This document shows positions 767 through 23,540 of a DNA stretch of 64,000 nucleotides, piece by piece. Position 1 is the first letter of the stretch; each line of letters starts with the position of its first letter. Below the pieces are notes generated by a model. It was not told where the DNA came from and did no database searches. It saw nothing but the letters and a program-made list of their open reading frames with translations. The DNA comes from Sphingomonas sp. (GTDB lineage Bacteria; Pseudomonadota; Alphaproteobacteria; Sphingomonadales; Sphingomonadaceae). The translations under genes and the position numbers were made by a program. The stretch spans positions 58,584 to 122,583 of the forward strand of contig NZ_JBAZTU010000008.1 in NCBI RefSeq assembly GCF_041661825.1, read 5' to 3'.

Positions 767-783
767 CTAAACGATTCGTCTAG
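767..783. promoter_or_regulatory. Box a: CTAAACGATTCGTCTAG, one copy of the recurring near-palindrome CTAARCGAWTCGTYKAG
   Basis: Lies in the divergent promoter region between the gene starts at 670 (-) and 843 (+). It is one of five copies in the window. Confidence 0.6.
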
Positions 784-842
784 CGACAGGTGGCACGGCG
801 AATGGCACCACGCCTTCTGCATTTGCCCGCGACGAGGGACGC

Positions 843-1778
843 ATGGACGCCGCCAACAGCCTTGCCCTGCGCACGCCGAGCCTCGCCCCATCGGGCGCGG
901 TCGCCTCGAGGCTCCGTGAGGCAGCGAACAGCGAATTCCAGTCGCACCTCATCCCCGTCCGCGAGGCGCTGGTGTGGCAACAGCCCCAGCCGCCGATCCA
1001 GTTCGCCGCGCCGGCCGCCACCGCGCCGGCCGGGATCGCCGCTGCGGGCGGCCCGACGACGCGCGAACTCGCCCAGCTAGCGGGCGACGTCTATAACGAT
1101 ATCACCGCGCCGCCCCCGGGATACCGGGTGGCGAGCGACGCCGACCTGGCGCAGCTCGGGCTGAGCCGGCAAGACCTGACCTCGCCGCAGAGCGCCTTCC
1201 GGGCGCGGGTCTATGCGAGCGGCGAGGGCGCGAGCACGCGCTATGTCGTGAGCTTCCGCGGCACGACCGACGGCAGCGACTGGAAAGCCAATGCGCAACA
1301 GGCAGTGGGCCTGCCGTCCGATCAATATGCCCATGCGCTGCTGGTCGCGAAGGCATTGGCGCGCAACCCCGATGCGAACGTGACGCTGACCGGCCATTCG
1401 CTCGGCGGCGGGCTCGCCTCGGCGGCGGCGCTGGCGAGCGGGCGCGACGCGGCGACCTTCAACGCCGCCGGGCTGAGCGACGCGACGATCCGCCAGGCCG
1501 ACGGCATACGCAATGGTGCGGGCATCGGCCGCGCGGCCGAGATCACCGCATTCTATGTCCGCGGCGAGATCCTGTCGGCGGTGCAGGATGGCGGCGACCG
1601 CGTGCTCGGCGCGATCTTCGGCGGCATACCGGGCGCCGTGTTTGCCGATGCGCCCGAAGCCTATGGCACGCGCGTGCCGCTCGATGCCGTGCGGCCCGAG
1701 GGGCAGCATTGGTACCAGGACAATCCGGTCGCGCGCCACGGCATGGACTGGGTGCTGAGCAGCATGCCGGCGCAGTGA
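843..1778 (+). CDS. Class-3 (alpha/beta) lipase-like protein without a signal peptide; candidate phospholipase effector
   Basis: Contains YVVSFRGTTDGSDWKAN followed by the nucleophile elbow LTGHSLGGGLAS (GHSLG). The N-terminus lacks a hydrophobic signal. GAGGGA lies upstream of the ATG, and box a is 60 bp upstream. Confidence 0.8.
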   Translation: MDAANSLALRTPSLAPSGAVASRLREAANSEFQSHLIPVREALVWQQPQPPIQFAAPAATAPAGIAAAGGPTTRELAQLAGDVYNDITAPPPGYRVASDADLAQLGLSRQDLTSPQSAFRARVYASGEGASTRYVVSFRGTTDGSDWKANAQQAVGLPSDQYAHALLVAKALARNPDANVTLTGHSLGGGLASAAALASGRDAATFNAAGLSDATIRQADGIRNGAGIGRAAEITAFYVRGEILSAVQDGGDRVLGAIFGGIPGAVFADAPEAYGTRVPLDAVRPEGQHWYQDNPVARHGMDWVLSSMPAQ

Positions 1779-1827
1779 TCCGCGATTGCCGGTTCACGCC
1801 GCACTGGCCGGGCTCTAGGAACCGGTC

Positions 1828-2751
1828 GTGACCCGCCATCGTTTCTTCGGCATCGCGGTGATGCTGGCGATCGCGCCGACCGGGGGATGCAGCATGGCGG
1901 CCGACAAGGCCTGTTTCAGCAAGCGCAGCTCGGTCGTGCTGCCGGATCGCACGCGCGTGCTGGCCAATGTCACCAATGGCGCTTCGGGGCGGACCCTGGC
2001 CGAGGCAGTGCTCGACGGGCGGACCGGTGAGGCGCGCGCGATGCTGGCGCGCGATCCGCGGCTGATCGGCACGGTGGTAACTCACGATCCGCGGATGAGC
2101 TCGGCGCCCGACGGCCAATATGGCGACCTGCTGACCCTGGCGGTGTCGCGCTGCGACCCGGACGGCATCGCGATGCTGCTCGCGGCCGGCATGCCCGCTA
2201 ATGGCGTGAGGCCCGGCAATGCGCTGACCTTGGCCCTTCTTGCCGACTCGCCCGATCTCGCCGAGGCGTTGCTGCGCGCTGGCGCCTCGCCCGATCCGCA
2301 GCGCCTGCCCGATGGCGAGGATGCGATGAAATCGGCGATCGCCTTCTCGCATGTCGGTGGTGTGATGACCCTGTTGCGGCATGGCGCCGATCCGCGCTGG
2401 GCCGACAGTTTCGGGATCGACCGGGTGCGGATGGCGCTCGATGCGGAGCAGGCCGATATCGCGGAATTGCTGGTCCAGAAGGGCGGAACATTGTGGAGCG
2501 TCGCCGGGGACGGCAGCATGGCCGTGCATGAACTGGTCGCGGAACCCGTCGCCTTTACCGGGCCGGAGATGAAGGCAGCGCGGGCGCGGCTGGTCGAGCG
2601 GGCCAAAGCGAGCGGCATCGGCTGGCCCCCGCCCGATCGCGCGACCGTGCGGCAGATGGTGGCATCGGGCGCGTGGCCGACACCGGCGATGGCCAAGGCA
2701 GGCATGACCGTTTCGGCCGAAGCGCTGGCGCAGATTCGCGCGAGGAACTAG
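1828..2751 (+). CDS. Exported (possibly lipo-) protein with ankyrin-like repeats
   Basis: GTG start. The N-terminus MTRHRFFGIAVMLAIAPTGGCS looks like a signal or lipobox. Ankyrin-like units include ALTLALLADSPDLAEALLRAGASPDP, SAIAFSHVGGVMTLLRHGADPRWAD and ALDAEQADIAELLVQKGG. Confidence 0.6.
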   Translation: MTRHRFFGIAVMLAIAPTGGCSMAADKACFSKRSSVVLPDRTRVLANVTNGASGRTLAEAVLDGRTGEARAMLARDPRLIGTVVTHDPRMSSAPDGQYGDLLTLAVSRCDPDGIAMLLAAGMPANGVRPGNALTLALLADSPDLAEALLRAGASPDPQRLPDGEDAMKSAIAFSHVGGVMTLLRHGADPRWADSFGIDRVRMALDAEQADIAELLVQKGGTLWSVAGDGSMAVHELVAEPVAFTGPEMKAARARLVERAKASGIGWPPPDRATVRQMVASGAWPTPAMAKAGMTVSAEALAQIRARN

Positions 2752-4028
2752 CCCGCCGGGCCTACTGCGCTCGACCACAAGGCATCGAAGGTCAGGTCGT
2801 CGACCGGCACGCGTCGCATCGTGCCGAAGGGCGCAGCGCCCGCGCATTGCACGATGCGGACTGAATCCACCGCACTCGCCTGTTCCGGCGCGATCGACGC
2901 AATGTCGCCCAGCGTCAGGATCGCCGGCACGCCCGGGCGCGCGCCGCGGCGGCCGGGCGGCAGGACGATCAGGCTGTTGTTCGGCCCGGCCGCCAGCCCC
3001 TGGCTGGACAGCGTACAGCTATGGCCGTCTTCCGAATCCGACCGCCCGCGTGCCTGGGCCTGGCGGCCGGGGCTGGCCGAGATCATCAGCCAGGAAGGCG
3101 CGAGTTGCAGCAGCACGCGCACCACGCTCGGCCATTGCGGGTCGCTCGCCGCGGCCGGGGCGATCGTCAGGCTGTCGCTGAGGAACAGATGCTTGCCCGT
3201 CAGGCGTGCCGGTTTGCCCGGAGCGCTCACGGCCTCGGTAGCGCTCGTCGTCAGGGCGCGGGCGATCGCGGCGGCGACCGGGCCGGTGACGGAATAGTGC
3301 TTCTTCCCCTGTCGAAGGACCAGGGTGGCGGGCAGTGTCGCGCCCTCGATCTGGGTGAGGTCCTGCAGCCCCATCTCGGCACCCTCGAACCGCGCATTGT
3401 CGAGCGCTGAGCCCCAGAAGGAAAAGCCGTGGAACGACGCGCCCGAGAAATCGGCGCCTTTCGCGCTGATCCCCTGCCGATCGAACGGGCAGCCATCGGC
3501 TTCGGTCACGCCGCACTGGAAGCGGAAGCCGGAGAAATTGGCGCCGTCGATCTTCCAGCCGGCAAGGCTTGCCTTCCAGCCGCCATCGAGCTGACCGCCG
3601 CGGAAATCGGCGCCGGTCGCATCGGCGCCGGCGAGCGTCGCCGTGCGCAACAGCACGCCGGGCAGAACCGCACCAGTCAGTTGCGCTTCGCTGAGGTCGG
3701 TATCGATGAACCCGAGGCCGGGCGCGGTGACGCCGCTCCAGTTGCTCTTCGAAAGGTCGCTGCCGCGAAAGCAGATCGAGGCGAGGTCGGCCTTGCGGAA
3801 ATCCTGACCGCTGAAGTCGCCGCCCTCGATCAGGATGACGCCCCCGTCCTTCGCCTTCCTGCGCAGCCTGCCGATCGCCCCGGCATTTTTGAGCGTGGCG
3901 CCGTCGACCGCTACGGGCAGGCTTGCTCCGCTTCCGTCGATCGCCCCCGCCTGCGCCGCGCAACCGATCGGGGCCGGGACGGGCGCGGCCGGGGTGGATT
4001 GAGCCAGCAGCAATGCGACAAGGATCAT
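2748..4028 (-). CDS. Pentapeptide-repeat protein with an N-terminal signal-like segment
   Basis: Long run of A(D/N)LxX-type pentapeptides: GGDFSGQDFRKADLASICFRGSDLSKSNWSG...TDLSEAQLTGAVLPGVLLRTATLAGADATGADFRGGQLDG...DGANFSGFRF...KGADFSGASFHGFSF. N-terminus is MILVALLLAQSTPAAP. Box b lies 47 bp upstream of the start. Confidence 0.8.
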   Translation of the reverse strand: MILVALLLAQSTPAAPVPAPIGCAAQAGAIDGSGASLPVAVDGATLKNAGAIGRLRRKAKDGGVILIEGGDFSGQDFRKADLASICFRGSDLSKSNWSGVTAPGLGFIDTDLSEAQLTGAVLPGVLLRTATLAGADATGADFRGGQLDGGWKASLAGWKIDGANFSGFRFQCGVTEADGCPFDRQGISAKGADFSGASFHGFSFWGSALDNARFEGAEMGLQDLTQIEGATLPATLVLRQGKKHYSVTGPVAAAIARALTTSATEAVSAPGKPARLTGKHLFLSDSLTIAPAAASDPQWPSVVRVLLQLAPSWLMISASPGRQAQARGRSDSEDGHSCTLSSQGLAAGPNNSLIVLPPGRRGARPGVPAILTLGDIASIAPEQASAVDSVRIVQCAGAAPFGTMRRVPVDDLTFDALWSSAVGPAG

Positions 4029-23092: not shown

Positions 23093-23484
23093 ACGCCTTG
23101 CAGCCCCATGCGCGGCCGACGCCGGCGCTGGCCGGAGACGGCGTCACCGATGCCGAGGAACTGGCCCGGCTGGTCGAGCGGCTGCGCGAGGCGGAAGCGA
23201 AGCGCGAGGCGCATGCCCGCGACATCGTGATCGGCGAGTTCAGCGTCACCGGCGCGCGGGTACCGCTGCTCCATATCGCCGGGCTGCAGACCTTGACCCG
23301 CAACGAGTCCGCGGTGCTGCGCTTCCTCGGCTGGGGGCGCGCCAATGGCGATATCGCGACCCTGCTCAACATGACCGAGAACACGGTCCGCACCCATATG
23401 AACAACGCGATCCGCAAGCTGGAACTGGACGGGGTCCGCGAGCTCAACAGCCTCGCGGGCCTGCTGTTCATGCCGCTCGAATGA
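23089..23484 (+). CDS. Small LuxR/GerE-type HTH transcription regulator (131 aa), coupled to sctT
   Basis: ATGA overlap with sctT. C-terminal HTH is LTRNESAVLRFLGWGRANGDIATLLNMTENTVRTHMNNAIRKLELDG. No receiver domain. Confidence 0.8.
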   Translation: MNALQPHARPTPALAGDGVTDAEELARLVERLREAEAKREAHARDIVIGEFSVTGARVPLLHIAGLQTLTRNESAVLRFLGWGRANGDIATLLNMTENTVRTHMNNAIRKLELDGVRELNSLAGLLFMPLE

Positions 23485-23501
23485 CGGAAACTGCGGAAAA
23501 A

Positions 23502-23518
23502 CTAAGCGAATCGTTTAG
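23502..23518. promoter_or_regulatory. Box d1: CTAAGCGAATCGTTTAG
   Basis: Lies in the intergenic region upstream of the gene at 23641. It forms a tandem with d2; the two copies start 22 bp apart. Confidence 0.6.
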
Positions 23519-23523
23519 GCCAC

Positions 23524-23540
23524 CTAAACGAATCGTCGAG
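23524..23540. promoter_or_regulatory. Box d2: CTAAACGAATCGTCGAG
   Basis: Second copy of the tandem; its 3' end lies 100 bp upstream of ATG 23641. Confidence 0.6.

Follow-up and report, generated by a model that had tools for sequence, protein, structure and literature searches.

A 17-bp palindromic box in a Sphingomonas type III secretion cluster

The DNA analysed here is a stretch of 64,000 nucleotides from Sphingomonas sp. (contig NZ_JBAZTU010000008.1, positions 58,584 to 122,583; hereafter, the window), with a G+C content of about 68%. At approximately 1-25.3 kb it carries a complete cluster for a T3SS (type III secretion system) injectisome, in which a 17-bp palindromic box lies in front of genes for effector-like and needle-like proteins. 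The minus strand encodes an SLT transglycosylase, SctV, SctC, SctD with a Y4YQ_C domain, SctJ, SctL and SctN, while the plus strand carries the operon for SctU, a FliO-like protein, SctQ, SctR, SctS and SctT (18775-23092). The last cistron of this operon (23089-23484, plus strand) encodes a stand-alone GerE/LuxR-type helix-turn-helix (HTH) protein of 131 aa, which we propose as the activator that binds the box. All non-flagellar T3SS parts were matched in Pfam and NCBIfam, namely the SctC secretin, the SctD and SctJ rings, the SctRSTUV export gate and SctN, SctL and SctQ. The remaining 25.3-64 kb encode ordinary metabolic and transport proteins. In tblastn searches against plasmids, the best stretch of SctV (residues 43-287) was only about 60% identical to many families and so pointed to no single T3SS subfamily (Rhc or other). 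No related T3SS locus was found in PLSDB, either by megablast of the 18-26 kb region or by tblastn of the regulator.

A first-pass annotation of this DNA had described five copies of a 17-mer, here written as the pattern CTAARCGAWTCGTYKAG. Exact matches were found at precisely those five places, starting at positions 767, 4075, 6207, 23502 and 23524, while none of the 100 dinucleotide-preserving shuffles that set the chance level gave any. With up to three mismatches allowed, 12 strand-specific matches appeared in the window versus 1.0 expected. A sixth copy with a single mismatch (CTAAGCGATCCGTTGAG, 745-761, minus strand) was located 22 bp before the start of the 767 box. All six copies are intergenic, and their consensus, CTAAACGAWTCGTTTAG, is a palindrome with an 8-1-8 layout. 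The distances to the start codons agreed with those previously annotated: the box at 767-783 (CTAAACGATTCGTCTAG) lies 96 nt from the start at 670 and 59 nt from that at 843, the one at 4075-4091 (CTAAACGATTCGTTGAG, plus strand) is 46 nt from the start at 4028 and 41 nt from that at 4133, and the one at 6207-6223 (CTAAGCGAATCGTTGAG, plus strand) is 38 nt from the start at 6168 and 65 nt from that at 6289. The boxes at 23502-23518 (CTAAGCGAATCGTTTAG, distal) and 23524-23540 (CTAAACGAATCGTCGAG, proximal), both on the plus strand, form the tandem with a 22-bp period that had been noted in front of the needle-like gene, whose ATG at 23641 follows the proximal box after 100 nt. The 745/767 boxes constitute a second such pair, and those at 4075 and 6207 are single. 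The 745 box would be the promoter-proximal site for the DUF1521 gene starting at 670, and the 767 box would be the distal site for this minus-strand gene and possibly the proximal site for the plus-strand lipase gene. The 4075 box faces the LysM/NlpC-P60/lysozyme gene and the 6207 box faces the operon of orf6289 and a second DUF1521 gene.

Pattern scans with mismatches and with the generalised core described below found no box in the 38 kb of flanking housekeeping DNA (25.3-64 kb). Four candidates were discarded. The match at 22634-22650 (CTGGTCGATCCGCTGAG) lies within sctT and starts with CTG instead of CTA, and the same sctT position fits the loose pattern in many relatives, which points to coding conservation. 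The candidate at 23671 falls within the needle-gene coding sequence, that at 32468, upstream of a TonB receptor, matches poorly, and that at 42888 also begins with CTG and not CTA.

The box precedes the same gene families across Sphingomonadales

Conservation was analysed in loci collected by a profile-guided scan with the regulator, keeping one genome per species. The resulting 80 loci came from Sphingomonas, Sphingobium, Novosphingobium, Sphingorhabdus, Qipengyuania, Erythrobacter and Croceibacterium; a few are metagenome-assembled genomes labelled merely Proteobacteria, Alphaproteobacteria or Pseudomonadota, and the rest carry Sphingomonadales names. Box scans covered the window, these loci and metagenome contigs. 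Because an iterative position weight matrix run at a low threshold drifted to unrelated sequence, an IUPAC core pattern with shuffle controls was used instead, in a generalised form (CT[ACG][AG]-N-CG-N-W-N-CG-N3-AG) and in a CTA form (CTA-N2-CG-N-W-N-CG-N3-AG). The generalised core occurred at 203 distinct positions in the 80 loci plus the window, where about 8 were expected; counted per strand, 326 matches were observed versus 11-25 in composition-matched shuffles. Of the 203 positions, 167 begin with CTA on one strand, and these fell into 116 clusters, about 100 of which are tandems with a period of 21-23 bp. Most loci carry two boxes 21-23 bp apart on the 3′ side of the regulator stop codon, with the first tandem 0-20 nt after it.

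The sequence of the box varied by clade. When 11 needle-gene promoters from the clade of the window were aligned, the proximal box and the CGC that follows it were invariant except for the central W and positions 13-14 (TC, TG or CT); the distal box was nearly invariant, and the 5-nt spacer and the flanks were variable. The clade of the window uses CTAAACGAATCGTTTAG, Sphingobium and Novosphingobium carry CTAATCGGATCGACTAG and CTAGTCGGATCGSGGAG, and the Root241 clade has CTAAGCGTTCCGATTAG. In Sphingorhabdus-like genomes we found box variants of the CA..TG type.

The genes downstream of oriented box clusters were assigned to families by our own open reading frame (ORF) calls and BLAST. The needle-like protein was by far the most frequent (50 clusters) and was always preceded by a tandem. 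It was followed by an uncharacterised family of about 480 aa (17 clusters, mostly tandem; L004:12321-13763, L050:16223-17662 and 15 others), the orf6289 family that precedes DUF1521 (16 clusters, mostly tandem), the LysM-lysozyme protein (11 clusters, nine of them single boxes 56-63 nt upstream), the DUF1521 protein (7 clusters, mostly tandem) and the lipase (2 clusters, mixed). Since the orthologous promoters of distant genomes carry boxes, the single boxes of the window at 4075 and 6207 stand in matching places. Box-preceded families of 480, 513, 405 and 147 aa had no Pfam match and no homologue in the window; the first of them is a candidate translocon or effector family.

Metagenome contigs were then scanned for the tandem alone, which returned 48 stretches. 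According to tblastn, approximately 37 of them show T3SS or regulon-family genes in the retrieved flank, and in three (L090, L117 and L109) the tandem precedes a gene of the 480-aa family or a LysM hydrolase. The ORF downstream in L091 matched no family, L116 gave no ORF, and six stretches were unrelated low-GC sequence or 21-22-bp tandem repeats. Two of the stretches (L103:6631-7593 and L088:3603-4565) carry the tandem before a lone DUF1521 gene in a housekeeping neighbourhood, between dnaB and the genes for CysH and a sulfite reductase, indicating that the box also marks effector-like genes outside the cluster. The first-pass annotation had suggested looking for the motif beside effector-like genes in related genomes, and there the same families recurred downstream, including these unlinked DUF1521 genes. 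The scatter over the genome expected of a repetitive extragenic palindrome was not observed, with no copy in the 38 kb of housekeeping DNA and with metagenome matches almost solely at T3SS-regulon genes. The proposal of a new T3SS regulon box was supported, in that box and regulator co-occur in T3SS clusters across Sphingomonadales and the same gene families follow the box in distant genomes. Altogether, it is very probable that the box is a regulatory element that acts in cis and is specific for this T3SS regulon.

A -10-like element lies at a fixed distance from the proximal box

The geometry of these promoters was examined in 89 non-redundant oriented tandems, with 83 opposite-orientation sites as controls. 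Of the two boxes, the distal one is more perfectly palindromic and has ..TAG as its end; the proximal one terminates in ..[GC]GAG, with CGCG directly after it. At +20 to +28 after the proximal box, the oriented tandems share the sequence [T/G]-G-C-[C/T]-A-T-[A/T]-A-T, in which +24 is A in 65 of 89 and +26 is A or T in 80 of 89, on a background of about 67% G+C. No -10-like signal was seen in the controls. This extended -10-like element begins at a distance of 23 nt from the proximal box, a spacing that holds within 1 nt in the 89 sites. No TTGACA-like hexamer accompanied it, and a consensus scan of these intergenic regions returned no promoter that combines a -10 with a -35 hexamer. Were the -10-like hexamer to lie at -12 to -7, the proximal box would extend over approximately -51 to -35 and be centred near -43, and the centre of the distal box would lie near -65. 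In the window, the element is CAATTT at 23563-23568 (plus strand), 23 nt after the proximal box of the needle gene, with a predicted transcription start near 23575. Downstream of the 6207 box, also after 23 nt, it is TATTTA at 6246-6251 (plus strand), with GCTATTTA at +21 to +28. The 4075 box is followed by a weaker match, TG-N-GATTCC. In the 745/767 pair, TGGCAC occurs at +20 to +25 on both sides, so that this pair may fire both ways. The first-pass annotation had read the boxes between divergent genes as dyad-symmetric sites that each serve both directions; the dyad symmetry stands, but the usual unit turned out to be an oriented tandem, and 745/767 is the only place in the window where bidirectional action is plausible.

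This geometry bears on what the palindrome does. Being palindromic, and with one pair directly after a stop codon, the box could be taken for a repetitive extragenic element, a terminator or a post-transcriptional RNA hairpin instead of an operator. We consider this highly improbable, because scans of the genomic loci and of metagenome contigs found the boxes almost exclusively at T3SS-regulon loci, they keep a constant position and orientation with respect to the -10-like element behind them, and most of them stand upstream of the point where transcription is predicted to begin. In addition, no T-run follows the box, the terminator scan makes no call there, and the loop of an 8-1-8 palindrome is too small for a stable full hairpin.

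A second question is whether an operator at this place would activate or repress. The regulator could bind the box as a repressor, occluding the promoters until secretion or another signal removes it: a proximal box over the -35 position is also a classic place for an operator, and in place of a sensory domain the regulator has a conserved N-terminal helix and hairpin (see below), which could bind a partner. Several features make such repression unlikely, however. These promoters do not carry any -35-like hexamer, and a box-to--10 distance fixed within 1 nt in 89 sites is expected from contact with RNA polymerase rather than from plain occlusion. Moreover, the phased sites, predicted near -43 and -65, are two helical turns apart, and two sites so spaced at such positions are the typical arrangement of an activator.

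The GerE-type protein is the putative box-binding regulator

The first-pass annotation had pointed to a LuxR-type HTH gene coupled to sctT, and this arrangement was verified: the start of the gene overlaps the sctT stop codon (ATGA) and its end lies 17 nt before the 23502 box. PF00196 matched residues 67-119 with 40.7 bits, against a cut-off of 23.5, and the protein was the only one with a DNA-binding domain in Pfam scans of the ORFs of the window cluster. No NCBIfam equivalog fitted it, and only a generic GerE/LuxR HTH was recognised. The search found 187 relatives of the regulator, the named ones being from Sphingomonas. In all 80 loci the gene directly follows the sctU...sctT operon, and the same accessory families recur nearby.

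The AlphaFold2 model of the protein has a mean pLDDT (predicted local distance difference test) of 83, which exceeds 90 in the HTH, and comprises, after a disordered N-terminus, a long helix (residues 22-43), a beta-hairpin (45-54), the HTH with its four helices and an extra C-terminal helix. The HTH superposes on those of NarL bound to DNA, GerE, TraR, EvgA, LiaR and others with a root-mean-square deviation of 1-2 A over 55-65 residues. By sequence, the nearest solved relatives are the corresponding domains of VpsT, EsrB, LiaR, CviR, GerE, NarL and SsrB. Pfam, NCBIfam and the model gave no receiver and no autoinducer- or ligand-binding domain in the approximately 60 N-terminal residues, and the fold search returned HTH matches alone, with none for the N-terminal part. 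NarL and TraR bind inverted repeats as dimers in their DNA complexes. The 8-1-8 palindrome is consistent with the regulator being a putative dimer binder as well.

The box was found to vary together with the recognition helix of the regulator. Proteins with an R-T-H-M recognition helix (..VRTHMNNAIRKL) pair with the half-site CTAAACGA, whose fifth position is A in 47 of 73 cases. Those with an R-V-H-L helix (..VRVHLNNMCRKL) and those with ..VRVHLSNVARKL pair with CTA[AG]TCG, in which position 5 is T (144 of 176 and 45 of 56, respectively) and never A. This co-variation supports direct recognition of the box by the regulator.

The boxes had also been suspected, in degenerate form, in front of the structural operons, with 18768-18784 as the example. 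This part of the annotation did not hold: no such box precedes them, the example falls at the start of sctU, and the homologous position in relatives is not box-like. The sctU operon has a TTGACC -35-like element of its own. It lies in a 438-bp AT-rich divergent region between the SLT operon and sctU (18338-18774) which contains no box. Blocks of this region are kept among close relatives (CACGATGCCCCAC, TTTCAAGTCA, GGAACYTTT and CCGCCCCACGG), as is a GTTGACC with an A/T-rich hexamer about 18 nt later. Given a conserved -35-like TTGACC block without a box, the apparatus and the regulator gene are probably under a separately controlled promoter, and the conserved blocks are presumably sites for whatever turns them on.

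These blocks, which some factor must read, leave room for a different division of labour, in which an unlinked transcription factor binds the box and the sctT-coupled GerE protein does other work, for example on the structural operons or as a co-factor. GerE-type HTH proteins are common in these genomes, and our homologue search covered this regulator family. We nevertheless regard an unlinked factor as unlikely, since the regulator is the sole DNA-binding protein conserved in the cluster, the size of the palindrome suits a GerE-type dimer, the half-site shifts along with the recognition helix, and in most loci the first tandem comes immediately behind the regulator gene.

A proposed class-II activation mechanism

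Taken together, these data make it likely that promoters of class-II type are activated by the GerE-type protein through binding to the box. The box would serve as operator for the 131-aa product of the final sctU-sctT operon cistron, with one dimer per box. At most promoters two dimers would bind on the same DNA face, 21-23 bp apart, at about -65 and -43. The proximal dimer would overlie the usual position of the -35 hexamer and recruit sigma-70 RNA polymerase to extended -10-like promoters, in the class-II manner of LuxR or TraR. The regulon would be a late set that includes the needle-like filament protein, DUF6683, the NopE-like DUF1521 proteins with their small upstream partner, the LysM-peptidoglycan hydrolase and the lipase/ankyrin pair, and, in other genomes, the ~480-aa family and unlinked DUF1521 genes. 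As the regulator would be made along with the export gate from the TTGACC promoter, a two-tier cascade could result, with the apparatus first and the secreted and accessory proteins second. The binding, the activation, the transcription starts and this cascade are all predicted from sequence.

Four observations speak against this mechanism or could be accounted for otherwise. The co-variation of helix and box follows two or three deep clades and could be explained by shared ancestry. A canonical box is missing from 18 of the 81 sources, several of which have CA..TG variants or a needle gene beyond the 10-kb flank. Three boxes (745, 767 and 4075) have weak -10-like elements. Finally, there is no terminator between the regulator gene and the needle gene, and read-through could add to needle-gene expression.

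Comparison with known T3SS regulons

The box had been described as unlike the tts, hrp and PIP boxes, and the scans agreed. The tts box has the consensus tcGTCAGcttntcGaaAGct... (PMC3009519), and its core GTCAG-N6-G-N2-AG gave no match in the window versus 1.6 expected. The hrp box (GGAACC-N15/16-CCACNNA) had no match in the window either, and the PIP box (TTCGB-N15-TTCGB) had 3 versus 2.15 expected, a chance level, all of them outside the cluster (30028, 45050 and 58523).

One parallel is the rhizobial tts/TtsI system, in which a box before genes for secreted Nop proteins and the pilus defines a regulon and predicts effectors; the targets here include DUF1521 (NopE-type) proteins, and SctD of the window carries the Y4YQ_C domain. 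The two systems differ in several respects. The tts box is asymmetric and about 30 bp long, whereas the box described here is a 17-bp palindrome, and the tts box also drives the structural operons, unlike this one. TtsI is an OmpR-type response-regulator-like protein. The regulator described here is instead a 131-aa GerE-type HTH protein that lacks a receiver domain and is co-transcribed with sctT, and Pfam scans of the cluster ORFs gave no winged-helix domain of OmpR type. In rhizobia, ttsI lies behind a nod box and the production of TtsI needs flavonoids (review on rhizobial T3SS).

In function, the regulator comes nearest to NarL-family T3SS regulators and to class-II activation of the LuxR/TraR type. 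SsrB of Salmonella SPI-2 and EsrB of Edwardsiella have the GerE-type HTH in common with the regulator and are among its best PDB sequence matches. Both, however, belong to two-component systems, as response regulators that have a receiver domain and a cognate kinase; in place of these the regulator has a short N-terminal helix and a hairpin. In SPI-2 promoters SsrB binds a palindromic site, from which the present box differs in sequence and in its 8-1-8 layout. LuxR and TraR in class-II mode are dimeric GerE-type HTH proteins that bind an inverted repeat near -42, over a missing -35, at activator-dependent promoters. The centre near -43 predicted here resembles this arrangement, but the regulator has no autoinducer-binding domain, its box has 17 bp compared with 18-20 bp, and a second phased site near -65 is the rule.

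The PIP box with HrpX, the hrpII box with HrpB (AraC type) and the hrp box with HrpL (an extracytoplasmic function sigma factor) follow the same concept, with a short motif that marks T3SS and effector genes, unlinked ones included. PIP is a direct repeat with a 20-bp period, compared with 21-23 bp for the box tandem, and HrpX, HrpB and HrpL belong to other protein families. There is also a likeness to flagellar class-3 control by FliA and FlgM, where the genes for the filament and late secreted proteins need a factor co-expressed with the export apparatus. Here that factor would be a transcriptional activator and not a sigma factor, and any coupling to secretion is speculation.

Our literature searches on T3SS regulation in Sphingomonads found no paper. 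T3SS genes have been reported on a contested S. sediminicola plasmid, in a study that does not address their regulation (PMC9861922). Within the literature searched, both the box and the subfamily of the regulator are new and the injectisome lineage that carries them is unstudied, while a dedicated T3SS activator with its promoter box is a kind of system already known.

The box-adjacent genes and their possible cargo

The most constant box-driven unit consists of the genes for the 212-aa needle-like protein (23641-24279), which has a weak C-terminal needle (SctF) signature, and a DUF6683 protein (24356-25255), both on the plus strand. Its predicted 5′ untranslated region (UTR; 23576-23640) contains two conserved stem-loops, GCGGC-GGACA-GCCGC and GCTCC-CCGCA-GGAGC, with some compensatory changes in relatives, and GGA motifs near the Shine-Dalgarno sequence. 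The stem-loops may serve post-transcriptional control. On the minus strand, the DUF1521 (NopE-like) gene behind the 745/767 tandem (1-670; E = 4.9e-48) runs off the edge of the window. DUF1521 is an autocleavage domain that occurs in NopE1 and NopE2, type III-secreted proteins of Bradyrhizobium, and in a T3SS protein from Vibrio coralliilyticus (PMC6506597). Three further plus-strand units follow boxes: a Lipase_3 gene (843-1778) with an ankyrin lipoprotein-like gene (1828-2751), 3′ of the 767 box; a gene for a LysM, NlpC/P60 and Phage_lysozyme2 protein, with a likely start at 4145, together with orf5455, which encodes a lipoprotein-like protein of 106 aa (4133-5775); and orf6289 (157 aa, no Pfam family) with a second DUF1521 gene, whose stop and start codons overlap (6289-7658). 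The other box neighbours encode a pentapeptide-repeat protein (2748-4028) and orf5782 (5782-6168). Two ORFs of the box-adjacent set have no Pfam family. Beyond the cluster, the G+C content falls to 0.56 at 48000-50000, compared with about 0.67 elsewhere, and this segment may be foreign DNA.

The first-pass annotation had taken the boxes to mark genes for secreted proteins. This may apply to the effector-like and needle-like genes, but not all products can be type III substrates, as N-termini resembling those of Sec-exported proteins or lipoproteins occur in five of them (the ankyrin protein, orf5455, orf5782, DUF6683 and the pentapeptide protein). The Sec-signal-like N-termini of the pentapeptide protein, orf5782 and DUF6683 indicate that part of the box regulon is exported by Sec.

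In several box-driven pairs, the first gene encodes an enzyme that lacks a signal peptide and the second a small protein whose N-terminus is lipoprotein-like. For the lipase (843-1778), the sole PDB sequence match was the type VI secretion lipase effector Tle of Enterobacter cloacae (7UBZ/9CYS, E = 1.9e-19). Its immunity protein, Tli, is a periplasmic lipoprotein with six ankyrin repeats (PMC11470151), and the gene after the lipase encodes an ankyrin-repeat protein whose homologues have lipobox-like N-termini, which is the Tli architecture. The LysM, NlpC/P60 and Phage_lysozyme2 protein likewise lacks a signal peptide, precedes orf5455 and nearly always follows a single box. Each of these two pairs is kept in many loci. 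By analogy, they might be effector/immunity modules secreted by the T3SS, in which case the injectisome would handle antibacterial-type cargo, but we hold this reading to be doubtful. The partners could instead have activating or chaperone roles, like that of cytosolic Tli towards Tle, and the targets could be eukaryotic. The LysM hydrolase could also be a FlgJ-like assembly hydrolase with orf5455 as its inhibitor, or part of a toxin/immunity pair.

Sphingomonas and its relatives are among the commonest bacteria of plants, soil and water. With the box as a rule, the secreted and accessory proteins of this system could be listed for any Sphingomonad genome, also where their genes lie at a distance from the cluster, and over-expression of the 131-aa protein would offer a handle to turn the system on in the laboratory. 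The arrangement would represent a fourth T3SS regulon logic beside those of HrpL, HrpX/HrpB and TtsI. The cargo, with NopE-like autocleaving proteins, a Tle-like lipase with its ankyrin partner and a LysM-peptidoglycan hydrolase, raises the question of which type of cell is the target. If the effector/immunity reading were true, the injectisome would be used against other bacteria, and the 17-bp box would be the key to finding its effectors.

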